14,981 bases of DNA from a virus (taxonomy: Duplodnaviria > Heunggongvirae > Uroviricota > Caudoviricetes). Positions 1 to 14,981 of the stretch are shown here, in pieces. The position numbers and the translations under genes are program-made. Position 1 is the first letter of the stretch, and every line of letters starts with the position of its first letter. The stretch spans positions 1 through 14,981 of IMG/VR virus record IMGVR_UViG_2606217106_000010; one strand, 5' to 3'. The notes beneath the pieces were generated by a model, which ran no database searches, had not been told where the DNA came from, and saw only the letters and a program-made list of their open reading frames with translations.

Positions 1-472
1 TACGTCACTTAAAAAACTCAGGCCGCAGTCGGTAACCTCGCGCATACAGCCGGGCAGTGACGTCATCGTCTGCGCGGAAATGGACGAACAGTGGGGCTAT
101 GTCGGGGCTAAATCGCGCCAGCGCTGGCTGTTTTACGCGTATGACAGGCTCCGGAAGACGGTTGTTGCGCACGTATTCGGTGAACGCACTATGGCGACGC
201 TGGGGCGTCTTATGAGCCTGCTGTCACCCTTTGACGTGGTGATATGGATGACGGATGGCTGGCCGCTGTATGAATCCCGCCTGAAGGGAAAGCTGCACGT
301 AATCAGCAAGCGATATACGCAGCGAATTGAGCGGCATAACCTGAATCTGAGGCAGCACCTGGCACGGCTGGGACGGAAGTCGCTGTCGTTCTCAAAATCG
401 GTGGAGCTGCATGACAAAGTCATCGGGCATTATCTGAACATAAAACACTATCAATAAGTTGGAGTCATTACC
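1..472 (+). mobile_element. IS1 insertion sequence, right-hand ~470 bp; the rest lies left of the window
   Basis: Sequence ends with the characteristic IS1 terminus ...CAATAAGTTGGAGTCATTACC at 451-472, and the internal ORF is InsB. The element is cut by the window edge, so its completeness cannot be judged. Confidence 0.9.
2..457 (+). CDS. insB: IS1 transposase InsB, C-terminal portion (5' partial at window edge)
   Basis: The frame is open from nt 2 and translates ...[48 protein letters not shown]...[15 protein letters not shown], matching IS1 InsB as I recall it. The provided ORF 80..457 is the internal-Met part of this frame. Confidence 0.9.
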
Positions 473-516
473 GGAAGCTAATTCTGATATTAGCGATCCC
501 ATGTATTATTGGTTTT

Positions 517-1887
517 ATGCCAGCTCCGGCAGGATTAAGCGAACTGGCGTGGGTGCTTTTTGGTATTTACCTGGCGGCCATTGTGGGGCTGGTTATCAAG
601 CCTTTCCCGGAACCTGTCGTACTGTTAATTGCCGTTGCTGCCTCAATGGTGGTGGTCGGTAACTTATCCGACGGTGCGTTTAAAACCACCGCCGTATTAA
701 GCGGTTACTCTTCAGGTACCACCTGGCTGGTGTTCTCGGCGTTTACCTTAAGCGCCGCATTTGTGACCACCGGTTTAGGTAAACGTATTGCCTATCTGCT
801 GATTGGTAAAATCGGTAACACCACGCTGGGTCTGGGTTACGTTACGGTATTCCTCGATCTGGTACTGGCTCCGGCAACACCGTCTAACACCGCGCGTGCG
901 GGCGGCATTGTGTTACCGATCATCAACAGCGTGGCGGTGGCTTTGGGGTCCGAACCGGAAAAAAGTCCGCGTCGTGTCGGACATTACCTGATGATGTCCA
1001 TTTACATGGTCACCAAAACCACCAGCTATATGTTCTTTACCGCAATGGCGGGGAACATTCTGGCGCTGAAAATGATCAACGACATTCTGCACCTGCAAAT
1101 TAGCTGGGGTGGATGGGCGCTGGCAGCCGGATTGCCGGGCATCATTATGCTGCTGGTCACCCCGCTGGTGATTTACACCATGTATCCACCAGAAATTAAG
1201 AAGGTGGATAACAAAACCATCGCTAAAGCGGGCCTTGCCGAACTAGGACCGATGAAAATCCGCGAAAAAATGCTGCTCGGTGTCTTTGTGCTGGCGCTGC
1301 TGGGCTGGATTTTCAGTAAGTCTCTGGGGGTTGATGAATCCACCGTGGCAATCGTTGTTATGGCAACCATGCTGCTGCTGGGTATCGTTACCTGGGAAGA
1401 CGTGGTTAAAAATAAAGGCGGCTGGAATACCTTAATCTGGTACGGCGGTATTATCGGCTTAAGCTCCTTATTATCGAAAGTTAAATTCTTCGAATGGTTA
1501 GCTGAAGTCTTTAAAAATAACCTGGCATTTGATGGTCACGGTAACGTTGCTTTCTTCGTTATTATTTTCCTCAGCATTATCGTGCGTTATTTCTTCGCTT
1601 CCGGTAGTGCCTATATCGTTGCTATGTTACCGGTATTTGCCATGCTGGCGAACGTCTCCGGCGCACCGTTAATGTTAACCGCGCTGGCACTGTTGTTCTC
1701 CAACTCCTATGGCGGCATGGTTACTCACTATGGCGGCGCGGCAGGTCCGGTCATCTTTGGCGTGGGTTATAACGATATTAAATCCTGGTGGTTGGTCGGT
1801 GCGGTACTGACGATATTAACCTTCCTGGTGCATATCACCCTCGGCGTGTGGTGGTGGAATATGCTGATCGGCTGGAACATGCTGTAA
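517..1887 (+). CDS. ybhI: DASS-family (divalent anion:Na+ symporter-like) inner-membrane transporter YbhI; the N-terminus may be truncated by the upstream IS1
   Basis: 456-aa ORF, highly hydrophobic with many predicted TM segments, matching E. coli YbhI in sequence and in its position before ybhJ/ybhC. No ATG/GTG/TTG exists in frame between the upstream stop (412-414) and 517. The in-frame upstream codons 472-516 encode a hydrophobic stretch (RKLILILAIPCIIGF) that looks like coding sequence running into the IS1 end. Confidence 0.85.
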   Translation: MPAPAGLSELAWVLFGIYLAAIVGLVIKPFPEPVVLLIAVAASMVVVGNLSDGAFKTTAVLSGYSSGTTWLVFSAFTLSAAFVTTGLGKRIAYLLIGKIGNTTLGLGYVTVFLDLVLAPATPSNTARAGGIVLPIINSVAVALGSEPEKSPRRVGHYLMMSIYMVTKTTSYMFFTAMAGNILALKMINDILHLQISWGGWALAAGLPGIIMLLVTPLVIYTMYPPEIKKVDNKTIAKAGLAELGPMKIREKMLLGVFVLALLGWIFSKSLGVDESTVAIVVMATMLLLGIVTWEDVVKNKGGWNTLIWYGGIIGLSSLLSKVKFFEWLAEVFKNNLAFDGHGNVAFFVIIFLSIIVRYFFASGSAYIVAMLPVFAMLANVSGAPLMLTALALLFSNSYGGMVTHYGGAAGPVIFGVGYNDIKSWWLVGAVLTILTFLVHITLGVWWWNMLIGWNML

Positions 1888-2069
1888 ATATTCTCGTCAT
1901 ACTTCAAGTTGCATGTGCTGCGTCTGCGTTCGCTCACCCCAGTCACTTACTTATGTAAGCTCCTGGGGATTCACTCGCTTGTCGCCTTCCTGCAACTCGA
2001 ATTATTTAGAGTATATCCATTTATTATCTTTCTGCGCACTTCACGGTGCGCAGATATCTGGAGCATTTG

Positions 2070-4331
2070 ATGATCAAGTTATCTGAAAAAGGCGTGTTTC
2101 TCGCCAGTAATAACGAAATAATTGCCGAAGAACATTTCACCGGCGAAATTAAAAAAGAAGAAGCCAAAAAAGGCACTATTGCCTGGTCTATTCTCTCTTC
2201 GCATAATACGTCCGGAAATATGGATAAACTTAAAATTAAGTTTGATTCATTAGCCTCTCACGATATTACCTTTGTTGGTATTGTACAGACCGCTAAAGCG
2301 TCCGGTATGGAACGTTTCCCGCTGCCGTATGTGCTGACCAACTGCCATAACTCACTCTGCGCCGTCGGCGGCACTATTAACGGTGATGACCATGTTTTTG
2401 GTTTATCGGCGGCCCAGCGTTATGGCGGTATTTTTGTGCCTCCGCATATTGCGGTCATCCATCAATATATGCGTGAGATGATGGCAGGCGGCGGCAAAAT
2501 GATCCTCGGGTCAGACAGCCACACCCGTTACGGTGCATTAGGGACAATGGCAGTCGGTGAGGGCGGCGGTGAGTTGGTAAAACAGCTGCTTAATGACACC
2601 TGGGATATCGACTATCCGGGCGTGGTTGCGGTGCATCTGACCGGAAAACCTGCGCCGTATGTGGGGCCACAGGATGTGGCGCTGGCTATCATTGGCGCGG
2701 TGTTCAAAAACGGTTACGTCAAAAACAAAGTCATGGAGTTCGTTGGACCGGGCGTTAGCGCGCTCTCTACCGATTTCCGTAACAGCGTTGACGTGATGAC
2801 CACTGAAACGACCTGTTTAAGTTCTGTCTGGCAAACCGATGAAGAAGTCCATAACTGGCTGGCGCTGCACGGTCGCGGCCAGGATTACTGCCAGCTTAAC
2901 CCTCAACCGATGGCGTACTACGATGGCTGCATCAGCGTTGATTTAAGCGCCATCAAACCAATGATTGCGCTGCCGTTCCACCCGAGCAACGTGTATGAAA
3001 TCGACACACTGAACCAGAACCTGACCGACATTCTGCGTGAGATTGAAATTGAGTCCGAACGCGTGGCGCACGGTAAAGCCAAACTCTCGCTGCTGGATAA
3101 AGTGGAAAATGGTCGCCTGAAAGTGCAGCAGGGGATTATCGCGGGCTGTTCTGGCGGTAACTACGAAAACGTCATCGCGGCGGCGAATGCACTGCGCGGT
3201 CAATCCTGTGGCAATGACACCTTCTCGCTGGCAGTTTACCCGTCATCACAGCCGGTGTTTATGGATCTCGCCAAAAAAGGTGTGGTAGCAGATTTGATTG
3301 GCGCAGGCGCAATCATCAGAACCGCGTTCTGCGGCCCATGCTTTGGCGCGGGCGATACGCCAATCAACAACGGTTTGAGTATTCGCCACACCACGCGTAA
3401 CTTCCCGAACCGCGAAGGCTCTAAGCCAGCTAATGGGCAGATGTCAGCGGTGGCGTTGATGGACGCTCGTTCTATCGCTGCGACTGCGGCAAACGGTGGC
3501 TATTTAACCTCTGCCAGCGAACTTGATTGCTGGGACAACGTGCCGGAGTACGCCTTCGATGTAACGCCGTATAAAAACCGTGTTTATCAGGGCTTTGTGA
3601 AAGGGGCAACTCAGCAACCGCTGATTTACGGGCCGAACATTAAAGACTGGCCGGAATTGGGTGCGCTGACTGACAATATCGTCCTGAAAGTGTGCTCGAA
3701 GATCCTCGACGAAGTGACCACCACCGACGAACTGATTCCTTCCGGTGAAACCTCTTCTTATCGTTCAAATCCGATTGGTCTGGCGGAGTTTACCCTGTCT
3801 CGCCGCGATCCCGGTTATGTTAGCAGAAGTAAAGCGACTGCTGAGCTGGAAAATCAGCGTCTGGCGGGGAATGTCAGCGAGCTGACAGAGGTGTTTGCGC
3901 GCATTAAGCAGATTGCTGGTCAGGAGCATATTGATCCGCTGCAAACTGAAATTGGCAGCATGGTCTATGCGGTGAAACCAGGCGATGGTTCTGCGCGTGA
4001 ACAGGCGGCGAGCTGCCAGCGTGTGATTGGCGGTCTGGCGAATATTGCCGAGGAGTACGCGACTAAACGCTATCGTTCTAACGTCATCAACTGGGGGATG
4101 TTACCGCTGCAAATGGCGGAAGTACCAACCTTTGAAGTGGGGGATTACATTTACATCCCTGGCATTAAAGCGGCGCTGGATAATCCGGGTACGACGTTTA
4201 AAGGTTATGTGATCCATGAAGATGCGCCGGTAACGGAAATTACGCTCTATATGGAAAGTCTGACTGCTGAAGAGCGCGAGATTATCAAGGCGGGTAGTTT
4301 GATTAACTTCAATAAAAACCGTCAGATGTAA
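2070..4331 (+). CDS. ybhJ: Aconitase-family protein YbhJ
   Basis: The provided ORF starts at GTG 2046, but the in-frame ATG at 2070 ([11 protein letters not shown]...) gives 753 aa, the length I recall for E. coli YbhJ. The protein has aconitase-like glycine-rich and Cys-containing regions and the expected position between ybhI and ybhC. Confidence 0.88.
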
Positions 4332-4344
4332 AAAGCGCCATGTG

Positions 4345-4552
<208 letters not shown>

Positions 4553-4564
4553 AGTTAATTGCTC

Positions 4565-5848
4565 TTACTTCTTCGCCTCTGCAACCACTTTACTACCCAC
4601 GCCGCGGTTATTGTATTCCCACATGCGGTTGTAGTTAGTGTCATTCAGATTGCGCTGTATTTCGTCGTTATCATCTACGCTGCCGGTATTACCCGCAAAC
4701 GGACGATTAGAGATCACCGCATCGGCCCACGGTTTAGCCGTGTTAAAACCTTCGTTGATGGCGCTATCACGGATCACCACCTGACCGTTGGTATTGGCAT
4801 CAACATCCAGCGAGCGGCCCAGTTGCGCCACACCATCACCGAAAGCATTGAAACGGCTGTTTACGGCGAGGAAACCGTAGTAAATGTTGGACAGCGTAGC
4901 CGGTGCAAACACATACGCTTCTTGCTGAGTACGTGAGTTCACCACGCGGAATTCGGTGTTATCGAACACCACTGCGCCGCGACCAGAAACGATATCCACA
5001 TCCCCTTCAATGTAGCTGTTGGTCACCAGCGTACGCGGCTGACGATTTGTTTCCAGACGGTTCTGCACACCGCTGTTGGTGACAAAGAAGGTGTTCTGAC
5101 GACCGAGAATGTTAACGTTGTTAATCTGTACCTGGTCACCATCAGTACGCAGTGCCACCGCCGGATGGTTACCTGCATCTACGCTATCGCCCAGCGTGTT
5201 TTCGATGGTCAGATTTTGCAGTTGCAGGCCATTGTTTTGTGACCAGAAGACCGCAGAGCAGAGAACACCGATACTGTCGCTGCGTTTGCTCTGGCAGCTA
5301 TCGTACATATACCACGCTGGTTTACCTGGCATATATTTGCCGCGCGGGTTGACGTCGTGACGCCAGTCGGCAGGGCTCATGCCACCATCAAGGGAAAGCC
5401 CAATCTTCACATCAATCGGTTTTTCACCTGTACCGTACAGAGTAATTCCACCCGGAGCGGCAGGGACATATACCGTTCCCTGATACTCACCAGGCATCAC
5501 GGCAATATACTGGCGCTTGTTGGTACGCTTGATAATTGCCGCATCTACCGCCGCCTGAATCGTGGTATGCGTTACACCTTGAGTGCCCGCCGGGCCGACA
5601 ACAAAGTCAGGTTGCGCAGGCAGGGTAATCGGGGAAGGATTCCACGCTGCAGCACCTGGTGTCAGGGATGCAAAATAGTGTTGAGCATCGAAATTCTGCG
5701 CTTCTTTTGCCGACAGAATCGGGCGAGAAGAGGTACCAGGCGCGGTTTGATCAGAAGGACGTTGATCGGGCGGGGTTGAGCTACAGGCGGTCAGCGTCAC
5801 GCCAAAAGCCAATGCCAGCGCCAGACGGGAAACTGAAAATGTGTTCAC
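4565..5848 (-). CDS. ybhC: Outer-membrane lipoprotein YbhC (pectinesterase-family fold; putative acyl-CoA thioesterase)
   Basis: 427-aa ORF with a lipoprotein signal peptide and lipobox (MNTFSVSRLALALAFGVTLTAC...). It is the last host gene before attB-lambda in E. coli, and its length matches YbhC. Confidence 0.9.
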   Translation of the reverse strand: MNTFSVSRLALALAFGVTLTACSSTPPDQRPSDQTAPGTSSRPILSAKEAQNFDAQHYFASLTPGAAAWNPSPITLPAQPDFVVGPAGTQGVTHTTIQAAVDAAIIKRTNKRQYIAVMPGEYQGTVYVPAAPGGITLYGTGEKPIDVKIGLSLDGGMSPADWRHDVNPRGKYMPGKPAWYMYDSCQSKRSDSIGVLCSAVFWSQNNGLQLQNLTIENTLGDSVDAGNHPAVALRTDGDQVQINNVNILGRQNTFFVTNSGVQNRLETNRQPRTLVTNSYIEGDVDIVSGRGAVVFDNTEFRVVNSRTQQEAYVFAPATLSNIYYGFLAVNSRFNAFGDGVAQLGRSLDVDANTNGQVVIRDSAINEGFNTAKPWADAVISNRPFAGNTGSVDDNDEIQRNLNDTNYNRMWEYNNRGVGSKVVAEAKK

Positions 5849-5879
5849 AGGTTGCTCCGGGCTATGAAATAGAAAAATG

Positions 5880-5982
5880 AATCCGTTGAAGCCTGCTTTT
5901 TTATACTAAGTTGGCATTATAAAAAAGCATTGCTTATCAATTTGTTGCAACGAACAGGTCACTATCAGTCAAAATAAAATCA
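5880..5982. other. Lambda-type attL (bacterial arm, 15-bp common core, phage P-prime arm with Int arm-type and IHF sites)
   Basis: Core GCTTTTTTATACTAA at 5895-5909 is preceded by host sequence TGAAGCCT and followed by GTTGGCATTATAAAAAAGCATTGCTTATCAATTTGTTGCAACGAACAGGTCACTATCAGTCAAAATAAAATCATTATTTGATTTCAATTTTGTCCCACTCCC, which is the lambda attP P-prime arm as I recall it. Confidence 0.92.
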
Positions 5983-7053
5983 TTATTTGATTTCAATTTT
6001 GTCCCACTCCCTGCCTCTGTCATCACGATACTGTGATGCCATGGTGTCCGACTTATGCCCGAGAAGATGTTGAGCAAATTTATCGCTTATCTGCTTCTCA
6101 TAGAGTCTTGCAGACAAACTGCGCAACTCGTGAAAGGTTGGCGGATCCCCTTCGAAGGAGAGACCTGATGCTTTTCGTGCGCGCATAAAATACCTTGATA
6201 CTGTGCCGGATGAAAGCGGTTCACGACGAGTAGATGCAATTATGGTTTCTCCGCCAAGAATCTTTTTGCATTTATCAAGTGTTTCCTTCATTGATATCCC
6301 GAGAGCATCAACATGCAATGTTGTTGGGATGGCAATTTTTACGCCTGTTTTGCTTTGCTCGACATAAAGATATCCATCTACGATATCAGACCACTTCATT
6401 TCGCATAAATCACCAACTCGCTGCCCGGTAACAACAGCCAGTTCCATTGCAAGTCTAAGCCAACATGGTGATGATTCTGCTGCTTGATAAATTTTCAGGT
6501 ATTCGTCAGCCGTAAGTCTTGATCTCCTTACCTCTGATTTTGCAGCGCGAGTGGCTGCGACCGGGTTTGTTGTTATATGGCCTTCAGCCATAGCCTCTCG
6601 GAATGCATCGCTCAGTGTTGATCTGATTAACTTGGCTGATGCCGCCTTTCCCTCGTCTATGTATCCATTGAGCATTGCCGCAATTTCTTTTGTGGTGATG
6701 TCTTCAAGTGGAGCATCAGGCAGACCCCTCCTTATTGCTTTAATTTTGCTCATGTAATTTATGAGTGTCTTCTGCTTGATTCCTCTGCTGGCCAGGATTT
6801 TTTCGTAGCGATCAAGCCATGAATGTAACGTAACGGAATTATCACTGTTGATTCTCGCTGTCAGAGGCTTGTGTTTGTGTCCTGAAAATAACTCAATGTT
6901 GGCCTGTATAGCTTCAGTGATTGCGATTCGCCTGTCTCGGCCTAATCCAAACTCTTTACCCGTCCTTGGGTCCCTGTAGCAGTAATATCCATTGTTTCTT
7001 ATATAAAGGTTAGGGGGTAAATCCCGGCGCTCATGACTTCGCCTTCTTCCCAT
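5983..7053 (-). CDS. int: Phage lambda-type integrase (tyrosine recombinase)
   Basis: 356-aa ORF MGRRRSHERRDLPPNLYIRNNGYYCYRDPRTGKEF...HLLGHKSDTMASQYRDDRGREWDKIEIK, near-identical to lambda Int by recollection. It sits directly against the P-prime arm of attL, as in a lambda lysogen. Confidence 0.96.
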   Translation of the reverse strand: MGRRRSHERRDLPPNLYIRNNGYYCYRDPRTGKEFGLGRDRRIAITEAIQANIELFSGHKHKPLTARINSDNSVTLHSWLDRYEKILASRGIKQKTLINYMSKIKAIRRGLPDAPLEDITTKEIAAMLNGYIDEGKAASAKLIRSTLSDAFREAMAEGHITTNPVAATRAAKSEVRRSRLTADEYLKIYQAAESSPCWLRLAMELAVVTGQRVGDLCEMKWSDIVDGYLYVEQSKTGVKIAIPTTLHVDALGISMKETLDKCKKILGGETIIASTRREPLSSGTVSRYFMRARKASGLSFEGDPPTFHELRSLSARLYEKQISDKFAQHLLGHKSDTMASQYRDDRGREWDKIEIK

Positions 7054-7145
7054 TTCTGATCCTCTTCAAAAGGCTACCTGTTACTGGTCGATTTAAGTCA
7101 ACCTTTACCGCTGATTCGTGGAACAGATATTCTCTTCCATCCTTA
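7031..7145 (-). pseudogene. xis: xis remnant: only the C-terminal ~37 codons of lambda-type excisionase remain
   Basis: The reverse strand encodes ...KDGREYLFHESAVKVDLNRPVTGSLLKRIRNGKKAKS* and overlaps the int start as in lambda. Lambda-like sequence ends near 7145/7146, with no upstream xis start codon or N-terminal coding sequence. Confidence 0.75.
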
Positions 7146-7155
7146 TATAACCAGG

Positions 7156-7336
7156 TGAATCATTTGATACCGACAAGGGTTTTAGTGAAAGGAGGTGAAA
7201 TCACCTGTAAGATACTGAAATAAAACAGGTGATGGCTAGATGTGCGGATAAGGTCTATTTGATACCGATTGTGCAATAATTAGTCATTTATTATAAAATC
7301 GGCAACTCATTTGATACTGTGGTTTTAGTCTTTTAA
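7156..7336 (+). repeat. Putative left end (attL) of a Mu-like transposable prophage with three direct transposase-binding-site-like repeats
   Basis: CATTTGATACCG at 7161-7172, TATTTGATACCG at 7256-7267 and CATTTGATACTG at 7308-7319 are direct repeats; repeats 1 and 3 are each followed by GGTTTTAGT. Spacing of ~95 and ~52 bp resembles Mu L1-L2-L3. A candidate terminal 5'-TG lies at 7156-7157. Confidence 0.55.
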
Positions 7337-7377
7337 GGCGTTCCAAACAATGCGAAATACTCGATATAGTGCAAAAT

Positions 7378-7406
7378 GCGGGCTAATGCTATTAACCCGC
7401 TTTTGG
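7378..7406 (-). terminator. Possible hairpin terminator overlapping the 3' end of the repressor gene
   Basis: GCGGG (7378-7382) and CCCGC (7396-7400) form a 5-bp stem with a 13-nt loop, flanked by a T/A-rich run on either strand. The stem is short. Confidence 0.3.
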
Positions 7407-7937
7407 TTCTACCGCGTTAGATTTGCGACTTCTCTCAGTTTCTTCCAAAATCTCTCTGACGCGTTCGTCAGACATACCTTCAAGCTGTAATGCAGCTATT
7501 CTTTTCCTTCCTTCTAAGCGGATTAGATCTTGATTTTCAGGCTCTAACAACCGAGCTAAGTACTTGGCTCCATTCAGAACCAAATTTTTCGATAGCTGCT
7601 CTAAGTCTTTTTCATCAAGTGCGCTGATAATCGTCATAATTATCTTCTTGCTTTCATCTTGATTTTCCTTGATCTCACAACGATTCACTTGTGATGCATC
7701 ACTGAATCCACATAGCCACTCAACACTTACTCCTTCGATAGACGCAATCTGAAGGGCGACACTTAAGGATGGCTCAGTGCCACGAGACAGATAATTGTTT
7801 AGTGTTGAAAATGAAAGCCCCCAATCTCTTGCTGCAGCTCTGACGCTGCGGGAGCCAATCAGCCTTTTCAGACGCTCAGCAATGCTTTCTTTTCTACCAC
7901 CAGGAAAAGAAAGAGATGTTGTTGTTTGCTTGTTCAT
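7392..7937 (-). CDS. Prophage repressor with Cro/CI-type HTH, in the position and orientation of Mu c
   Basis: 181-aa ORF divergent from ner. The N-terminal region (IAERLKRLIGSRSVRAAARDWGLSFSTLNNYLSRGTEPSLSVALQIASIEGVSVEWL) has the pattern of an XRE/CI-family HTH. There is no obvious S24 peptidase domain. Confidence 0.7.
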   Translation of the reverse strand: MNKQTTTSLSFPGGRKESIAERLKRLIGSRSVRAAARDWGLSFSTLNNYLSRGTEPSLSVALQIASIEGVSVEWLCGFSDASQVNRCEIKENQDESKKIIMTIISALDEKDLEQLSKNLVLNGAKYLARLLEPENQDLIRLEGRKRIAALQLEGMSDERVREILEETERSRKSNAVEPKAG

Positions 7938-8121
7938 TTTCTTTTCTTCCTATCAATTTGAAATTATTAACTTTTAGTGTTGTCAGCAACCATTGATCCA
8001 CAATAGACAAAAGAAAGATGTTTTTTTGCTTTACATGAAGCAGAAGTGGATCAATACTTATATCAAATTTGATAACTAAGTTTAGTTATCAAATTTCGTA
8101 ACTTTTTAGGATAGATGAATC
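7938..8121. promoter_or_regulatory. Divergent promoter/operator region between the repressor and ner
   Basis: AT-rich 184-bp intergenic region containing a 14-bp perfect palindrome TATCAAATTTGATA (8061-8074), a further half-site copy TTATCAAATTT (8086-8096), and a 10-bp inverted repeat ATTGATCCAC (7993-8002) / GTGGATCAAT (8046-8055). Confidence 0.5.
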
Positions 8122-8352
8122 ATGGCGAGAAATGAAGTTAAGCCTGATTGGCATCCTCAAAGAATTTTGGGGGAAGTCAGAGCCAGAGAAGGAAGCATGA
8201 GGGCGCTGGCCCGTAAAGCTGGCGTGGGTCAGAACAATCTGTACAACGCGGTATACCGCCATGTTCCCAAGTATGAGGGGATTATCGCGGAATGCCTGGG
8301 GGTGCCGCCCGAGGAGATTTGGCCCAGCCGCTACATTCGTAAGGTCGCGTAA
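8122..8352 (+). CDS. ner: Ner-like DNA-binding protein (Mu Ner / Nlp family)
   Basis: 76-aa ORF containing the motif EEIWPSRY (cf. Mu Ner ...PEVIWPSRY) and a KPDWHPQRILG N-terminus resembling Mu Ner. It is the first gene of the rightward operon and sits immediately before the transposase gene. Confidence 0.85.
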   Translation: MARNEVKPDWHPQRILGEVRAREGSMRALARKAGVGQNNLYNAVYRHVPKYEGIIAECLGVPPEEIWPSRYIRKVA

Positions 8353-8354
8353 TT

Positions 8355-10442
8355 ATGTTTGCTTCAGTCAAAGAACTGGTTGGATTACCGGGGATGCCGG
8401 GAACGGAGCAAGGCGTTCGCTATTCAATCAGGAAGTATGCAACCAGCGAAACCAGCAGACGCCGCAAGAAAGGCGCTAAAGGTTTTGAATACAGCATTGA
8501 CTGTTTACCTGAAGTGACACAGCAGGCATTACGCGAACGTTATGCCCTGCAACTGATGACGCAAAAAGCCGATGAATCACCGGCTCCGGTGGTGACAAAG
8601 GCCAGACGCTCGTCTGCCGTGGTTGATGCGGTGGAGGCATATCGCGGATCACCACAACTGATGGTCGAACGCCTCAATGCCCTGACTGAAAACCAGCGCC
8701 AGGTGGCAGACGCACGCATTGCGATCGTCAGTGAGGTGCTGAAATTCACGCAACAACCCGGTTTCAGCTGCGCTAAAGCTATCCGGTTCATCGTTGACCG
8801 CCTGTCACACTCGCAACTGGATGAGCGCATTGTGGCAATGGTTGAGATAGCGAACGCCAGAAAGGGAAACAGTCGCGTGTTGAGTGAAATCACGCTGAAA
8901 CGCTGGATTGCGGCCTTTAATAAGGCACAGAACGCTGCTGAACGCCTGCTTTTGCTGGCACCAGGTAAACGCCAGGAAATAAAAGCCGAAGATATTAACT
9001 GGTTGCCCGAATTTCTGGCGCAGTATCGCCAGTCAAACGGCCGACCAATGACCGAGGCTTACGAGGATTTTGTTGCCGAATGGCAGCACCGGCACGCTGA
9101 TGAGCCTTATATGCTCGATATCATGCCGTCTTATGACACCATTCGCCGCGCAATGAAGAAACTGCCGGAAGTGGTGAAACAAAAAGGACGGGTTACCGGC
9201 AGTGAATACCGCCAGCTTGAGGGATTCACGCGCCGCGACTGGTCAAAAATGCCGGTGAATTATGTCTGGATTGGTGACGGTCACGGCATGAAGCTGAAAT
9301 GCGCGCACCCGGTTCACGGGCGGCCATTCGCACCGGAAGTGACCTTTGTTATCGACGGTGGCACGCGCTTTGTGGTGGGCTGGAGCCTTGACCTGGCTGA
9401 AAATGTTTTCGCCGTAGCCGGTGCCATACAGCACGGTATTCGCCATCATGGCAAACCGTTTCTGTATTACTCGGATAATGGCTCCGGGGAAACCGCCGAC
9501 GTCCTGGATAAGGAGATTGTGGGGATACTGCCACGACTGGGGATTAATCACCCGACAGGGATTGCCGGTAATCCGCAGGGACGGGGCATTATCGAACGGC
9601 TTAACCGCACATTACCGATGCGCATAGCCCGTAAATACCGCACCTATTTCGGGAAAGGAGCAGATCGCGAGACGTTACGTAAAACCAACCGCGATTTACG
9701 CTCGGCATTCAGTGCCCTGCAACAGGGCAAACGGCTGAACGCCCGGCAGCAGTCAGCGATGCGTGATTTACCGTCCTGGTCTGAACTGATTGATGCCATT
9801 CGTGACGGTGTTGAGTGGTACAACAACCGGCCGCACGATGAATTACCCATGAAGCCGAACGGTAAACATTACAGCCCGGCGGAGTTCAGAAAAAAACGCC
9901 TGGCGGAAGAGGACACGGAAATTGAATGGCTGTCCGATGTTGAACTGCGGGATATGTTCCGGCCGATGGTGGAGCGCCCTGTAAGACGCTGTGAAATACG
10001 CTGGCTGAATAATATTTACTACGCGCCCGAGCTGCGTGACGAGCATGGCCGTAAGGTACTTATCAGCTATGACATTCATGATGCCGAACGAATTACCGTG
10101 CGCCGCCCGGATGGCAGCGTGATTTGCGAGGCGGTATGGGACGGCAATAAACGCGAAGCCTTCCCTGTCAGCGCGGAATACTACAAACAGCAGCAGCGCC
10201 TTAAAGGCATGCGTAAACGCGCAGAGGAAAAAATCCGTGATGCCGAGGATGAGGTTGTCAACGTGCTGGAGCACAAGCCGCAGGAGCCCTGGCTGGAAAA
10301 CATATACCGCCCTGTGGGTAATACGGTGACCGTTCAGCAACCGGTCGCTGACGATGAACCTGATGAAGAATACGAGCGTAATTTCCAGCGGGGATTGCAA
10401 CTGCTCGAAGCGAAATTAAAAGAAAGTGATCCGCTGGCCTGA
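8355..10442 (+). CDS. MuA-family DDE transposase (transposable-phage transposase A)
   Basis: 695-aa ORF. Its N-terminus resembles the MuA enhancer-binding domain (cf. Mu MELWVSPKECANLPGLPKTSAGV...GVKGGKAIEY versus here ...GLPGMPGTEQGV...GAKGFEYS). The catalytic-core region VWIGDGHGMK...ILGWSLDLAEN parallels Mu WINGDGY...ILGWRCDVSEN. It is followed by a B-like gene. Confidence 0.92.
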   Translation: MFASVKELVGLPGMPGTEQGVRYSIRKYATSETSRRRKKGAKGFEYSIDCLPEVTQQALRERYALQLMTQKADESPAPVVTKARRSSAVVDAVEAYRGSPQLMVERLNALTENQRQVADARIAIVSEVLKFTQQPGFSCAKAIRFIVDRLSHSQLDERIVAMVEIANARKGNSRVLSEITLKRWIAAFNKAQNAAERLLLLAPGKRQEIKAEDINWLPEFLAQYRQSNGRPMTEAYEDFVAEWQHRHADEPYMLDIMPSYDTIRRAMKKLPEVVKQKGRVTGSEYRQLEGFTRRDWSKMPVNYVWIGDGHGMKLKCAHPVHGRPFAPEVTFVIDGGTRFVVGWSLDLAENVFAVAGAIQHGIRHHGKPFLYYSDNGSGETADVLDKEIVGILPRLGINHPTGIAGNPQGRGIIERLNRTLPMRIARKYRTYFGKGADRETLRKTNRDLRSAFSALQQGKRLNARQQSAMRDLPSWSELIDAIRDGVEWYNNRPHDELPMKPNGKHYSPAEFRKKRLAEEDTEIEWLSDVELRDMFRPMVERPVRRCEIRWLNNIYYAPELRDEHGRKVLISYDIHDAERITVRRPDGSVICEAVWDGNKREAFPVSAEYYKQQQRLKGMRKRAEEKIRDAEDEVVNVLEHKPQEPWLENIYRPVGNTVTVQQPVADDEPDEEYERNFQRGLQLLEAKLKESDPLA

Positions 10443-10524
10443 AATAAAAAAATAACCCGAGGGGTGACTCAGGTTATTTGAGGTTTCAGTCTCGGAGAAT
10501 GCTGTCTCAAGCGAGGTGAATAAT

Positions 10525-11457
10525 ATGACCGATATTAACGATGTAATCAAGACCATTGATGAACTTATTGATGGCGGCGTACTGACGCAGTATGCCATCG
10601 CCAGAGAGGCGGGAATTTCCGACGGCACATTATCGGCTTTCCGTAAGGGAAAATATAAAGGCGATAACGCTGCTGTGGCTGCTTCCCTGCGCTCCTGGTA
10701 TGAGAACTGGAATAAACAAAGCGCACTGCCGGAACCGCCGCAGTTTGTGGAAACTCAGACAGTCCAGGAGCTGCGCGCACTGTTTCAGGCGGTTCGCCTG
10801 ATGGGCTGTATTAACGTTATTGTGGGCGTACCGGGTGTGGGTAAAACGGCCACTGCCCGTAATTACTGCCAGGAGCAACCAAACACCTGGATGATCACCC
10901 TGTCACCCGCGCACTCCAGCGTCACGGAGTGTCTGCTGGAGCTGGCCGATGCGCTGGGGATTGATTACACCCGCGCGAACAAAGGGGCATTATCCCGCGC
11001 CATCCGCCGTCGCCTGATGGGAACGCGTGGACTGGTGATTGTGGATGAGGCGGATCATCTTGGTATTGACGGTCTGGAGCAACTCCGGGCAATTCAGGAC
11101 GCCACGGGGATCGGGATGGTGCTTATTGGTAACCCGCGCGGATTGTTTAAAGGTGGACGCCGCGCCTTTGATGATTTATCGCGCCTGTTCAGCCGTCTTG
11201 CCCGTACAAAACAACTTCGCAAGGCCAAAAAGGCGGATGTGCTGGCCATTGCCAGGGCATGGGGTATCAGTGGTGAGGCCGAGCTGGCCGTCATGCAGGC
11301 TATCGCTGAAAAGCCGGGAGCGTTACGCGTTCTGACACATACGCTTAACCAGGCGTGGCTCACCGCCAGCGGTGAAGGCGCGGCGCTGACAGAAAAACAT
11401 ATTAATGCGGCCTTTAAAGAGGTTTATACCAACCCTGAATTACTCTCACAGGTGTGA
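10525..11457 (+). CDS. MuB-family AAA+ ATPase / target DNA activator
   Basis: The provided ORF starts at GTG 10516; the ATG at 10525 with a GAGGTG RBS upstream is the more likely start. Walker A VGVPGVGKT and Walker B LVIVDEADHL are present. Strong resemblance to Mu B (PEPPRFVETQTV..., QKPGALR...). Confidence 0.9.
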   Translation: MTDINDVIKTIDELIDGGVLTQYAIAREAGISDGTLSAFRKGKYKGDNAAVAASLRSWYENWNKQSALPEPPQFVETQTVQELRALFQAVRLMGCINVIVGVPGVGKTATARNYCQEQPNTWMITLSPAHSSVTECLLELADALGIDYTRANKGALSRAIRRRLMGTRGLVIVDEADHLGIDGLEQLRAIQDATGIGMVLIGNPRGLFKGGRRAFDDLSRLFSRLARTKQLRKAKKADVLAIARAWGISGEAELAVMQAIAEKPGALRVLTHTLNQAWLTASGEGAALTEKHINAAFKEVYTNPELLSQV

Positions 11458-11459
11458 TT

Positions 11460-11681
11460 ATGGTGATATTTAATATTCCTGATATTTACGGACGCTTTCA
11501 CCTGGTGAATTTCGATAACGTCAAAGCAGTCTCCGTGTCTGACAGTGAAGAATGTGGCGATTTACTTTTTGAATTTAATGATCGCACCAGAATGGCAATA
11601 TCGGCAGGACTTGATCGTGAAGGTGCGAAAGAAGCTTACAGCAATATTTGTCGTTTTATCGGTGCAAAACGAATCAGCTAA
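11460..11681 (+). CDS. Hypothetical small early protein (positional equivalent of Mu kil)
   Basis: 73-aa ORF starting at an ATG that overlaps the end of the B gene (a GTG at 11454 is an alternative start). It has the same orientation as the early operon. No recognisable motif. Confidence 0.5.
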   Translation: MVIFNIPDIYGRFHLVNFDNVKAVSVSDSEECGDLLFEFNDRTRMAISAGLDREGAKEAYSNICRFIGAKRIS

Positions 11682-11693
11682 ACGAGGTGTTAT

Positions 11694-11948
11694 ATGAATA
11701 TGCAATCCTGCGGTAACAAAATGAATTTATTCGACTCCCTGAACAGCGCGCGCCGTCTGACCGAACTTGCCGGTGCGGTACTGGAACGCAGTAAGCGCTA
11801 CCCACAACGTTTTGCACTGAAAACCACGCCGCCGGTAGGCAACGTGCAGGGAACCGGTGAAATTGAAATCACCATACAGACCAACGGCCTGCGCCGCCGT
11901 GTGAAGGCCACCCGCATAAGCGGATGCACGGTTTACTGGGAGGTGTGA
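11694..11948 (+). CDS. Hypothetical early-region protein
   Basis: 84-aa ORF with a GAGGTG RBS 5 nt upstream, tightly packed in the operon. Function unknown. Confidence 0.5.
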   Translation: MNMQSCGNKMNLFDSLNSARRLTELAGAVLERSKRYPQRFALKTTPPVGNVQGTGEIEITIQTNGLRRRVKATRISGCTVYWEV

Positions 11949-11949
11949 G

Positions 11950-12231
11950 ATGAAACGAAATCTGATTGCGTGGGCGTGGTCGAGCGGTCTCATTGAGTTT
12001 GGTTACGTCCTGCCGGAAGGTGCATTGCCGATAGTTGCCGGAAAGCCTGCCACAGTACGGCATGTGATTGAGGTTATGGCGCGTCATGGACGTGATGAAC
12101 AGGAGCAGTTACTGGTTCCGGGGATACCGGAAGCGGTGACGGAGGAAGAAGCCTTTAATGCCATGATTCGGTTCTGCCGTGAGGTCAGACGCCGGGTCAG
12201 TTATCCAAACAGAACGAGGACCAGAGGATGA
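11950..12231 (+). CDS. Hypothetical early-region protein
   Basis: 93-aa ORF with a GGAGGTG RBS. It starts 2 nt after the previous stop and overlaps the next start (ATGA). Function unknown. Confidence 0.55.
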   Translation: MKRNLIAWAWSSGLIEFGYVLPEGALPIVAGKPATVRHVIEVMARHGRDEQEQLLVPGIPEAVTEEEAFNAMIRFCREVRRRVSYPNRTRTRG

Positions 12232-12500
12232 GTAAAGTTGTACGCATTATTTTCGAATACAAGGAGCACGTTATCCATAAAAACGCTGATGAAACAGTGC
12301 ACATGGGGGTAAGTCTGGGCATACGTTCAACCGGGATAAAGCAGAAAGGTGATGGACCCGCCATGATTTTTGGGGTGGTTATGCTCGCGGAAAGCAGAGA
12401 CTTTGCTGAACTTGTGGCAATGAAAGCCAGAGCGCTCATGAAAGATATGAACATGAGTTCCGGGGTTATTAAAGGTAATGAATTTAATCAGCAGGGGTAA
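12228..12500 (+). CDS. Hypothetical early-region protein, paralog A (N-terminus MSKVVRIIFEYKEHV)
   Basis: 90-aa ORF whose start overlaps the upstream stop (ATGA). Its N-terminus is shared with the next ORF. Confidence 0.55.
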   Translation: MSKVVRIIFEYKEHVIHKNADETVHMGVSLGIRSTGIKQKGDGPAMIFGVVMLAESRDFAELVAMKARALMKDMNMSSGVIKGNEFNQQG

Positions 12501-12504
12501 TTCC

Positions 12505-12798
12505 ATGAGCAAAGTACGCGTTATTTTTGAATTTGAGCATGTTTCGCATGACGAAAAGCTGGCAGGCAATGACTGTGTTGAAGTGCATGAAAAGATTGGT
12601 GTGGATGTGAAAACAGAACGTGATACGGAGAACAGCCCGACGTCACTCTGTGATGTTTATGCAAGTATTCTCCAGTATCACAGTCCTGCAATTATTCATT
12701 TCCTCTCAGCGGAATTTCAGGCATCTGCACAGGATTTTGGAGCGGATGCCATCATTAAACGCCACCGCGTGCATAAAGCATCAGGCACACTGCAATAA
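12505..12798 (+). CDS. Hypothetical early-region protein, paralog B (N-terminus MSKVRVIFEFEHV)
   Basis: The provided ORF starts at 12478; the ATG at 12505 has a better RBS (AGGGG) and gives the N-terminus MSKVRVIFEFEHVSH, which parallels the preceding gene. Confidence 0.55.
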   Translation: MSKVRVIFEFEHVSHDEKLAGNDCVEVHEKIGVDVKTERDTENSPTSLCDVYASILQYHSPAIIHFLSAEFQASAQDFGADAIIKRHRVHKASGTLQ

Positions 12799-12809
12799 GG
12801 AAAAACAAA

Positions 12810-13340
12810 ATGGCTAAACGCGTTACAAAATTAAAGGCCGCAGCCGAGGCCGCACCACAGACCCGCGAAGAAGTCAGCCGCGATATCCGACGCTTTGGGG
12901 ATATGCAGCGTGAGGCGCTGCGCCTGGAAACAGCGATGAATGACGAAGTGGCAGAAATTACCGCCCGTTATACGCCGCAGATTGAAAACCTTAAAAAAGA
13001 AATCAAAGTGCTTTTTAAAGGGATTCAGGACTGGTGTAAAACCAACCGCAATGAGCTGACGAACGGCGGTGAAACCAAAACAGCCAATCTGACCACCGGA
13101 ACGGTGTCATGGCGGCTGGGAACGCCATCATGCAGCGTCAGCCGTGATGTGGAAGGCGTGATTGAAATGCTGCGCCGTATGGGCCTTGAGCGCTTCATCC
13201 GCACGAAAGAGGAAGTGAATAAGCAAGCTGTCCTGGCGGAGCCGGATGCGGTGAAAGACATTGCCGGTATTAAGGTGAATAAAGGCGCTGAAAGTTTTTA
13301 TGTCGAGCCTTTTGAACAGGACGCCGGACTGAACAAATAA
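12810..13340 (+). CDS. gam: Gam-like host-nuclease inhibitor / DNA-end-binding protein (Mu Gam family)
   Basis: 176-aa ORF resembling Mu Gam along its length by recollection: LQREALRLETAMNDEVAEITARY..., NRNELTNGGETKTANLTTGTVSWR..., RFIRTKEEVNKQAVLAEP..., PFEQDAG. Confidence 0.88.
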   Translation: MAKRVTKLKAAAEAAPQTREEVSRDIRRFGDMQREALRLETAMNDEVAEITARYTPQIENLKKEIKVLFKGIQDWCKTNRNELTNGGETKTANLTTGTVSWRLGTPSCSVSRDVEGVIEMLRRMGLERFIRTKEEVNKQAVLAEPDAVKDIAGIKVNKGAESFYVEPFEQDAGLNK

Positions 13341-13437
13341 CACCGCATTAAATCTTTAAATATCACTTCATTTTAATTATGGCGCTCGCGTCAGGGGACT
13401 GCCTGCGCCTGTAAACTGAAAATAAGGAACAGGAAAT

Positions 13438-13980
13438 ATGGCATATTTTTATTTCAAATTAGACTGTGTGCAGACAAATAAATATTTCACCAAATATCAA
13501 CAGACTGTTTTACCGCTACGCAACAGTATTCTTCGGGCGTTACTGAAAAATACAGGCGCTACCGGATTGCGCTTAAAGCCGTTCGCCATGGACGTAATCA
13601 GTGAGTTTTATTTTTCCGGTGCTCTGCCTGCGGGCTGGTGTAAGCGCGATGATGTGGCTTTTATCGGTGGTGGACAGTGCTTTATAGCCAGACCTGATGA
13701 GTCATGCCCTGAAGGAGCGGCGATTGCCGCAATGATTGAAGCCGCTGAACGCGAGTTAAGAAAGCGTCCTGATTTCCTTGTCTGGCTCTGTGAAAAGCTG
13801 GGGGTAATGAGAATCCCCTCCATGTTTAACACAGACTCCTGGTGGACCCCGTCTCTCTCCCGTGATGCCCTGTGCGTGGTGTTTAAAGTAGGTGCTTATG
13901 GCAGGGAAATAAACGGGCGTATTCCTGAAGAATGTCAGGAAATTAAACATTCTGAATATGTGGCGCTGACGGAGGAATAA
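13438..13980 (+). CDS. Hypothetical protein (late part of Mu-like early region)
   Basis: 180-aa ORF with an AAGGA RBS, preceded by a 97-bp AT-rich gap after gam. No recognisable motif; it contains several Cys residues without a clear zinc-finger spacing. Confidence 0.55.
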   Translation: MAYFYFKLDCVQTNKYFTKYQQTVLPLRNSILRALLKNTGATGLRLKPFAMDVISEFYFSGALPAGWCKRDDVAFIGGGQCFIARPDESCPEGAAIAAMIEAAERELRKRPDFLVWLCEKLGVMRIPSMFNTDSWWTPSLSRDALCVVFKVGAYGREINGRIPEECQEIKHSEYVALTEE

Positions 13981-13983
13981 TTC

Positions 13984-14517
13984 ATGATAGATGCAAAAGT
14001 GCTTGAAGGGGTTAAAAACTGGCTGAGCATTTACGGGCGTCTGACCTGCGGCGTTCTGGCTCAAAGAATGAATATGCCGCCATCCTCGATGGTCTATTTT
14101 CTGCGTGATGCGGTTGATGCCGGTGTGCTGACAGAATGTAACGGTTTTTATGATATTCCGCGTCCCCGCCCGGTACAGCCGGTTCGTCGCAAATGCCGCC
14201 AGGAGTCTGTGGCTGATGATGTTCAGTGGTGCAGCTTCAGAAAATCCCTGCCGTGGGTTGAAGGGCATGATATTCCGTCGATGGCGTGGGAATTTGCGCA
14301 GGGCGTTCTGACCTGTGAAACCGTTTATGTGGTGGCTGAAGTTGATGAGCAGGCAATGAAAGAAGGTGTGCCCCAGTTTGTGATGGCGTATATCGACATT
14401 CGCCTGGGGACCATTATCTGCGGTTTAAGCGGCTGGAATATCACCGAACATGTTCTGCGTTACCTGATTGTTGACCGGACGGCAGCGCCTGCCGGGATAT
14501 CTGCGGAGGTGGCGTAA
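13984..14517 (+). CDS. Hypothetical protein, possibly with an N-terminal winged-helix-like domain
   Basis: 177-aa ORF with a GGAGGA RBS, starting 3 nt after the previous stop. Residues ~15-50 (IYGRLTCGVLAQRMNMPPSSMVYFLRDAVDAGVL) resemble a winged-HTH pattern; this is inference only. Confidence 0.5.
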   Translation: MIDAKVLEGVKNWLSIYGRLTCGVLAQRMNMPPSSMVYFLRDAVDAGVLTECNGFYDIPRPRPVQPVRRKCRQESVADDVQWCSFRKSLPWVEGHDIPSMAWEFAQGVLTCETVYVVAEVDEQAMKEGVPQFVMAYIDIRLGTIICGLSGWNITEHVLRYLIVDRTAAPAGISAEVA

Positions 14518-14979
14518 TGTTCTTTAAAACATCGAACCCTTCCGCGCTGGCTGCGTGGCAAAAATATCAGCAGGACTGCCAGCAAGTTAAGGATGAGGCA
14601 AAACGCCTTGAGGCCGTGCTGAATGTTGAGTGCCGGTCGGTATTTGTATCCGGTATCAGCGGTTTTTGTTTTAAGGGGCTGCGTTTTACGAATGACAAAT
14701 ATCCTTTTCATCGTGATTTATGGCGAAAACCGACTGCGTCGAATGGCTGGAGCTGCACGCCGCGCACATCGCGCATTCCCAAAGCCCTGCGCACTGCCTC
14801 TGACGAACTGAACAGTCTGTGGCGTGAATATTCGCCCGTCACGTATGCCAGAACCGATGCCCTGTTGTTCTGGCTGGGCATTGATTTCTCAGCAATCCTG
14901 TATGGCCCTGTGGAGTGGTTCTGCGTTGACGATGTGATTTATCTTCAGTGCGGTGTAAAACCCGCAAATCAGAAAATGA
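14518..14979 (+). CDS. Hypothetical protein, 3' partial (runs off window end)
   Basis: An ATG at 14518 immediately follows the previous stop (TAATG). The frame stays open for 154 codons to the window edge (MFFKTSNPSALAAWQKYQQDCQQVKDEAKRLEAVL...). It is absent from the supplied ORF list, probably because it has no stop codon within the window. Confidence 0.45.
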
Positions 14980-14981
14980 CC

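Follow-up and report, generated by a model that had tools for sequence, protein, structure and literature searches.

We analyzed a window of 14,981 bp, which is the whole of contig JNRB01000090.1 from a draft short-read E. coli assembly (GCA_000704465.1). The contig was recognized by an exact match to a rare 97-aa protein of the window, and the two sequences are identical over the positions compared (2505-14981). The contig is bordered by IS1 on the left and by Mu-like sequence on the right, that is, by repeats at both ends. The IS1 end covers positions 1 to 473, and this copy sits about seven codons into ybhI. The chromosomal portion, 99.8 to 100% identical to E. coli, then runs in the order ybhI', ybhJ, and ybhC (4565-5848) and leads to the core of a lambda attL site (Table 1). 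The attL arms consist of bacterial DNA on the left (ybhC side) and of the phage P' arm on the right, followed by int, and the 15-bp common core is present between them.

The exact Int protein was found in 3,910 blocks of the protein collection and adjoins ybhC in 10/10 of the places listed; an intact 72-aa xis normally lies beside this exact Int allele at the attB-lambda locus. In the window, the intact xis that overlaps the start of int in a lambda-type prophage is represented by nucleotides 105 to 219 only. These are identical at 115/115 positions to the same nucleotides of intact xis in the same prophage lineage (L016), and the 37-aa product matches only positions 37 to 77 of the Pfam Exc profile, i.e., its C-terminal half (E 7e-15). 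Hence, xis is split, and the window keeps codons 36 to 72 without a start codon. Elsewhere, we noted another strain (L017) whose copy of this lambdoid prophage has an IS element in xis, and many prophages carrying the exact Int allele that are already rearranged or defective.

Beyond the xis fragment, the remainder of the window corresponds to the early region of a Mu-like phage. The c gene diverges from ner-A-B, as it does in Mu-like phages, and B stands directly downstream of A. The N terminus of A matches the enhancer-binding domain of MuA (1tns), and its core weakly matches retroviral integrases. The exact A protein was present in 213 blocks of the protein collection and the exact B allele in 21,282 blocks. 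Exact matches to A, Int, B, and a 180-aa protein led solely to insertion sites other than the present one. Homologues of c carry a transcriptional regulator annotation in related prophages. The c-ner region also contains a sigma-70-like site on the + strand (8030-8058). A scan of positions 6900 to 8400 reported no terminator-like site on the minus strand; by eye, a GC-rich hairpin lies at the stop codon of c, and its bearing on read-through from c into xis'-int is speculative.

Table 1. Features of the lambda-type prophage and of the Mu-like early region in the 14,981-bp window
Feature	Position	Strand	Basis
attL core (O) of the lambda-type prophage, GCTTTTTTATACTAA	5895-5909	+	Exact core string; lambda match begins at lambda 27724, the start of the misc_recomb core 27724-27738
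int, intact lambda-type tyrosine integrase, 356 aa	5983-7053	-	Pfam Phage_integrase E 2.5e-40; lambda Arm-DNA-bind_1 E 7e-33
xis 3' fragment: last base of codon 35, codons 36-72, stop	7031-7145	-	No start codon; 5' 104 nt missing
Left end of the Mu-like prophage, terminal 5'-TATAACCAGG	7146-7330	+	Same terminal sequence against different flanks elsewhere
Putative transposase-binding motif ATTTGATACYG, three direct copies	7162-7172, 7257-7267, 7309-7319	+	Motif count
c-type repressor, 181 aa	7392-7937	- (towards left end)	PHROG 3037 transcriptional repressor E 4.5e-60; weak HTH_3
Operator-like repeats and perfect 15-nt palindrome, c-ner divergent control region	8061-8103		Repeat search; putative function
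ner-like early regulator, 76 aa	8122-8352	+	Pfam HTH_35 E 1e-21; PHROG 769
A, Mu-type DDE transposase, 695 aa	8355-10442	+	PHROG 310 transposase E 3.6e-211; HTH_Tnp_Mu_1 E 1.6e-8; Mu-transpos_C E 2e-17
B, MuB-type AAA+ transposition ATPase, 310 aa	10525-11457	+	Phage-MuB_C E 2.5e-25; AAA_22 E 4e-18; PHROG 296
Semi-essential early region (contains kil, gam, gp11-like, and gp12-like genes)	11460-14981	+	Gene table of L042, identical to the window
kil	11694-11948	+	PHROG Kil E 6.6e-46
gam	12810-13340	+	Pfam Phage_Mu_Gam E 2.6e-40
gp11-like gene	13984-14517	+	L042 gene table
gp12-like gene, cut by the contig end	up to 14981	+	L042 gene table

Lambda homology ends at a single base within xis

We then positioned the boundary between the two prophages by a megablast search of positions 5860 to 7300 against 50,697 phage records. 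Window positions 5895 to 7145 aligned to positions 27724 to 28974 of lambda (J02459) with 98.3% identity, and the match to mEp332 was 99.8% identical. In every phage record aligned, the lambda match stopped at the same base, position 7145 of the window (query position 1286), which corresponds to lambda 28974 and falls within xis (complement 28860-29078). Mu-like homology began at the very next base, 7146, both in complete E. coli genomes and in the Stx-phage records LC727881 and LC727895. The abrupt passage from lambda to Mu-like sequence that the initial annotation had described near 7145 is therefore real and sharp, and BLASTN against lambda fixes the end of lambda homology at 7145. The int-xis'-Mu junction was absent from all complete E. 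coli genomes (0/5,426), which points to a strain-specific event rather than to a conserved phage architecture.

The Mu-like element has the same termini at many unrelated sites

We looked into the sequences that flank the same terminus in other genomes. The terminal sequence TATAACCAGGTGAATCATTTGATACC (TATAACC type) has 16 distinct flanks among the loci examined (L003-L014, L035-L046), which include bcsA, citD/citE, the O-antigen region, puu, sgrR, and two P2-like prophage genes. Its TGTAACC variant, TGTAACCAGG, has 13 further flanks (L002, L025-L034, L036, L040, L044), among them Sakai sorM, an Stx phage, and a lambdoid terminase region. For the right end, we searched proteins with a predicted chimera and obtained 105 distinct host-gene N termini fused to one right-end read-through (...YSAAIFLIPICISFDTAEKRRYATYLILNRRFSFEF). 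Each of these chimeric open reading frames (ORFs) represents an independent insertion. As expected of transpositional integration, identical termini thus lie against many unrelated targets, with ∼29 left flanks and 105 right-end chimeric ORFs.

These comparisons also defined the ends of the element. The junction had been predicted to lie within 7146-7157, with a candidate terminal TG at 7156-7157. The range holds, but the element starts at 7146 with TATAACCAGG, and the TG is rejected as the terminus: the 10 bp that precede it travel with the element at every site and, for this reason, are Mu-like phage DNA. The left terminus in the window is TA (7146-7147). As for the right end, which had been expected to finish in CA, it reads ...GCGCTATA (...CTATA) in 6/6 loci and in 105/105 chimeric ORFs of the Sp18-like family, named here after Sp18 of E. 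coli O157:H7 Sakai, the closest named prophage; the family right terminus is TA. All three copies of the putative transposase-binding motif ATTTGATACYG in the window are at most 175 nt from the left end (chance expectation, 0.51 copies), and the right end of Sp18-like relatives carries three inverted copies (GGTATCAAA/AGTATCAAA). The outermost site lies 17 nt from the terminus at both ends, the right one being read in the relatives.

Because the same terminus abuts ∼29 different host contexts, we conclude that 7145/7146 is a true junction between a transposon end and its target. The lambda side is co-linear with intact int-xis prophages that thousands of assemblies carry at this site. Together, this co-linearity and the start of Mu-like sequence at the terminus defined by ∼29 sites make a hybrid phage or a chance join very unlikely. 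A natural hybrid would unite lambda-type int and Mu-like c-ner-A-B in one genome, and the adjacency itself, nothing more, speaks in its favor. Such a phage would hardly carry an xis gene cut in the middle of its codon series, without start or promoter, next to a Mu-like module that ends at its normal transposon terminus; moreover, lambdoid genes otherwise always follow this Int allele. The initial annotation had stated that a natural family with this gene arrangement, if one turned up, would argue against nesting, and we found no adjacency of int and Mu-like c-ner-A-B in the phage records or the complete E. coli genomes searched. The hybrid-phage reading is effectively refuted.

An assembly artefact, in which a contig of a lambdoid prophage and a contig of a Mu-like prophage were joined into a chimera, is somewhat more plausible and still very improbable. 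The assembly is indeed a fragmented short-read draft, and both extremities of this contig are repetitive (IS1 at 1-473, Mu-like sequence at 14981). However, the breakpoint falls on exactly the nucleotide that ∼29 other sites define as the biological end of the element, the two partners have no common repeat at the join that could have misled the assembler, and where true repeats occur, the assembly did stop.

Complete insertions of the family are flanked by 4-bp duplications

We then examined six complete insertions (L003, L004, L035, Sakai Sp18, L045, and L046). All six are simple insertions that begin with T(A/G)TAACC, finish with GCGCTATA, and are flanked by direct repeats of 4 bp (GACG, CATG, CTTT, TAAA, CGCC, and AACA, respectively), and the depositors of LC727881 likewise annotated a 4-bp duplication. 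The 5-bp target duplication anticipated in the initial annotation is not what this family makes. A 5-bp duplication with shifted ends was also considered and dropped, as it is readable at only one of the six sites, which is chance level. Given the 4-bp stagger of the family, the duplication expected here is CTTA (7142-7145) and not a 5-mer. Sp18-like elements should best be bounded by T(A/G)TAACC...GCGCTATA plus a 4-bp duplication, rather than by TG...CA plus 5 bp.

The right junction lies beyond the contig

The right junction falls outside our view, since the window is the whole contig and ends inside the Mu-like early region. With respect to the proposal of a Mu-like phage nested within xis of a lambdoid prophage, the left junction is thus exact, whereas the nesting itself is visible on one side only. 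If the insertion is simple, the right end would be followed by CTTAACCGGAGGAGGGAATATCCTGC, corresponding to xis codons 36 to 1, and then by the lambdoid early-left genes; the predicted junction would read ...AATCGCCGCGCTATA joined directly to CTTAACCGGAGGAGGGAATATCC and the rest of xis. A scan for CGCGCTATA and ACCGGAGGWGGGAATATCC separated by 0 to 8 nt did not find this junction in viral, GTDB-representative, or JGI metagenome contigs, and the left junction was absent there too. These scans carry no information, as the source assembly, and hence the known left junction, is missing from those collections.

At the protein level, the predicted 72-aa read-through ORF Xis(1-36)::Mu was not among 5.8 billion protein clusters, which include the proteins of the source assembly. 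This could mean that a contig breaks at the junction, that the gene was not called, or that there is no 5' half of xis. A contig break would explain the missing ORF: both ends of our contig are repeats, and a sibling assembly (GCA_000704505.1, JNRD01) breaks the region differently. The chimeric-ORF search also returned several unrelated xis truncations. The + strand ORFs across the predicted right junction were dropped as queries, being antisense and having no credible start.

We also considered that the left junction between the Mu end and xis is genuine and that the locus was rearranged later, leaving a truncated prophage remnant beside a Mu-like phage rather than a true nest. Mu promotes adjacent deletions and inversions, and possible routes here are an adjacent deletion or inversion by intramolecular replicative transposition or recombination between Mu-like copies. 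The absence of the Xis-N::Mu ORF from a protein collection that covers the source assembly is in line with such an event. So are the different breakpoints of the contig and of the sibling assembly within the Mu-like early region, which would fit the presence of several Mu-like copies, and the many rearranged or defective prophages that carry this Int allele. Nevertheless, 6/6 complete insertions of the family are simple, with matching 4-bp duplications, and the fragmented assembly accounts equally well for the missing ORF. We therefore regard a later rearrangement as unlikely. Under that reading, the right end would border something other than the 5' half of xis, and the remainder of the lambdoid prophage would be lost or elsewhere, an outcome that we likewise consider improbable.

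Proposed course of events and consequences for the two prophages

The best explanation of the locus is a simple insertion of an Sp18-like Mu-type phage into xis of a lambda-type prophage at attB-lambda, to which we assign a probability of about 0.85. We propose that Int first placed a lambda-type prophage in attB-lambda, which lies between ybhC and ybhB/bio. Codon 36 of xis would later have received an Sp18-like phage by transposition, its c (left) end pointing towards int. By analogy with Mu, A would bind the three ATTTGATACYG sites at each phage end, and target DNA would be delivered by B. The 3' ends of the phage would then be joined to target positions 4 bp apart, the stagger of this family, and CTTA would accordingly reappear at the right junction.

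Xis is required for excisive recombination between attL and attR, and pI and pL lie upstream of the insertion point in xis, such that the insertion would cut int off from both. Full-length elements measure ∼38 kb in related prophages, and one of that size would part int from the upstream lambda promoters. Since Xis is needed for the attL x attR reaction, the lambdoid prophage has probably lost its excision: it would be unable to excise alone, while the Mu-like phage would still be able to transpose. The locus clearly illustrates how one temperate phage can disable the excision machinery of another. The split xis should lock the lambdoid prophage, together with any cargo, in the chromosome, whereas the Mu-like phage stays mobile, and disruption of xis is one route to "grounded" prophages. 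Such loci are mishandled by prophage callers and assemblers, because, as here, the contig has repeats at either end.

An E. coli family with TA termini and an apparent 4-bp stagger

The 4-bp duplication and the TA termini are the most unusual by-product of this analysis, more so than the nesting. Terminal CA is near-universal in transposition of the Mu and retroviral-integrase type, and transposable prophages are recognized by a duplication of 5 to 6 bp. In the Sp18-like family, TA forms the right end of every copy seen and both ends in the lineage of the window, and the TA-ended lineage is found at ≥16 independent sites with identical transposase. Lineages with a 4-bp duplication and TA termini are clearly still transposing. 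We consider it an even bet that this abundant E. coli family of Mu-like phages transposes with a 4-bp stagger and TA 3' termini. If this is true and uncharacterized, the family would be a naturally occurring, active departure both from the terminal-CA rule and from the criterion of a 5- to 6-bp duplication.

Comparison with known phages

On the lambda side, the int-xis-attP regions of lambda, mEp332, ev099, HK106, and HK630 are 98.3 to 99.8% identical in nucleotide sequence to the window over the stretch that begins at the att core, includes int, and reaches xis nucleotide 105. The chromosomal site beside ybhC is common to the window, lambda, and the lambdoid prophages at attB-lambda. The window differs from lambda in that Mu-like DNA replaces everything to the right of lambda 28974 and interrupts xis.

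On the Mu-like side, the window has the gene order c, ner, A, B, kil, gam in common with Sp18 and Sp18-like prophages. Its B is identical to the allele found beside TGTAACC-ended prophages of the Sp18 type (in the ten places listed), its left-end sequence equals that of Sp18 except at position 2 (TATAACC here, TGTAACC in Sp18), the right ends belong to the same family, and the 4-bp duplication is a family feature (TAAA in Sakai). In contrast, the c-ner-A allele differs from that of Sp18, with c of 181 versus 176 aa and A of 695 versus 696 aa. Sp18-like Mu-like phages of O157 occupy variable, strain-specific positions (PMC7430833). The insertion in a lambdoid xis seen in the window has no counterpart among the 5,426 complete genomes compared.

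The closest parallel to the nesting is provided by the Mu-like phages of STEC CC119 in LC727881 and LC727895, which are 93 to 94% identical to the window over the early region at the nucleotide level (A, 93.5%). Both are annotated in GenBank as "inserted Bacteriophage Mu-like phage," and in both, as proposed here, a Mu-like phage transposed into a resident lambdoid prophage. Their host is an Stx phage integrated at other sites, whereas here it is a prophage with a lambda-type immunity region at attB-lambda whose xis is disrupted; furthermore, the left terminus is TG in LC727881 and TA in the window. In closed genomes of STEC CC119, 6/10 Mu-like phages lie within mobile elements, several of them in Stx phages (PMC10132054). 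We also found members of the Sp18-like family inside P2-like prophages (L012/L013 and L045) and, in L025, adjacent to a lambdoid terminase gene. Publications and annotations thus already cover Mu-like phages that reside in lambdoid Stx or P2-like prophages. With nesting of this phage family on record for STEC, our case adds an instance and not a principle.

Compared to Mu itself, the architecture of the early region is common to both, including MuA-type N-terminal DNA-binding and Mu-transpos_C domains, a MuB-type ATPase, Gam, and Kil, as are three putative transposase sites per end and quasi-random insertion. However, A is very divergent: Mu is not among its 25 best phage matches, which extend down to ∼31% identity, and the nearest isolates are Yersinia vB_YpM_5/vB_YpM_6 (82%), Klebsiella Kp4866-3 (57%), and Haemophilus SuMu (43%). 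The termini are TA/TG...TA in the Sp18-like family and TG...CA in Mu, and the duplication of the family is 4 bp (6/6 insertions), compared to 5 bp for Mu and 6 bp for B3 (PMC8705779).

Termini, target duplication and fusion ORFs of the Sp18-like family

The six complete insertions of the Sp18-like Mu-type family that were examined (L003, L004, L035, L045, L046, and L044, which is Sakai Sp18) all showed a 4-bp target duplication. The right terminus of the family reads ...GCGCTATA and is thus TA, not CA, and the left terminus varies among lineages, being TG in some and TA in others, with TA at positions 7146 to 7147 of the window. Since the TG and TA variants were each found at many independent sites, both appear able to transpose.

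Leftward transcription and translation into the Mu-like right end (39320 to 39428 in L003, a complete insertion) encounter 36 open codons (YSAAIF...FSFEF) before a stop, and therefore every in-frame insertion yields a host::phage fusion ORF. Public gene calls contained at least 105 different fusions of this kind (proteins P0012 to P0120 of the protein-cluster search), which often carry the name of the host gene in their annotation.

Insertions of mobile elements into resident prophages

Members of the Mu-like family were also located in or next to genes of other prophages (see the table), and chimeric ORFs revealed further insertions in genes for antiterminator Q, the small terminase, and a head-tail connector. 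In another strain (L017, positions 8604 to 10023), an insertion sequence of the IS3 family splits the xis gene of this same attB-lambda prophage, and Exc remains as two fragments, 54 and 22 aa long. Different mobile elements have therefore struck the prophage's xis independently.

Features located in the window and in comparison loci
Feature	Locus	Position	Strand	Context
IS1 copy, end part	Window	1-473		Contig starts within IS1
Perfect 15-nt palindrome AAATTTGATAACTAA/TTAGTTATCAAATTT and 17-nt direct repeat	Window	8061-8103		c-ner divergent region
Mu-like insertion	L012/L013	~8792		P2-like prophage (tail sheath and major capsid genes hit across L012/L013 and L045)
Mu-like insertion	L045	2002/34749		P2-like prophage (as for L012/L013)
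Mu-like insertion	L025	6427		Lambdoid prophage, adjoining the large terminase gene
RefSeq "tRNA-OTHER"	L003	19076-19155	Minus	Mu-like prophage, outside the window
RefSeq "tRNA-OTHER"	L046	18460-18539	Minus	Mu-like prophage, outside the window

Contig boundaries

The left boundary of the contig is explained by the IS1 copy, whose terminal inverted repeat (...CACTATCAATAAGTTGGAGTCATTACC) extends to approximately position 473, with an insertion point approximately seven codons into ybhI. Because of this copy, the median number of matches to positions 1 to 5900 was 36 per E. coli genome. At position 14981, the contig stops within a gp12-like gene of the Mu-like phage, and hence the right junction is missing. 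The same Mu-like region is broken at other points in a sibling assembly (L043, JNRD01000158.1, 3,692 bp), which, together with this contig end, suggests that these genomes each harbour two or more related Mu-like prophages.

Organization and mosaicism of the Mu-like element

The palindrome and direct repeat between c and ner, a part of whose sequence resembles the end-site motif (TTTGATA), are probably operators for the repressor and Ner. The annotated tRNAs of the related prophages are flanked by a head-morphogenesis (MuF-like) gene and a virion-morphogenesis gene.

Judging from sequence comparison with L005, L037, and L025 to L034, the Mu-like element (7146 to 14981) is a mosaic. Over its entire 7.8 kb it shares 99.1% identity with L005, and its c-ner-A module belongs to the 181-aa/695-aa type. 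Among the proteins encoded downstream, three represent rarer alleles, and a protein of 97 aa turned up in two assemblies only. The B protein is identical to a very common allele, listed in 21,282 blocks of the collection, which belonged to Sp18-type prophages at the ten places examined.
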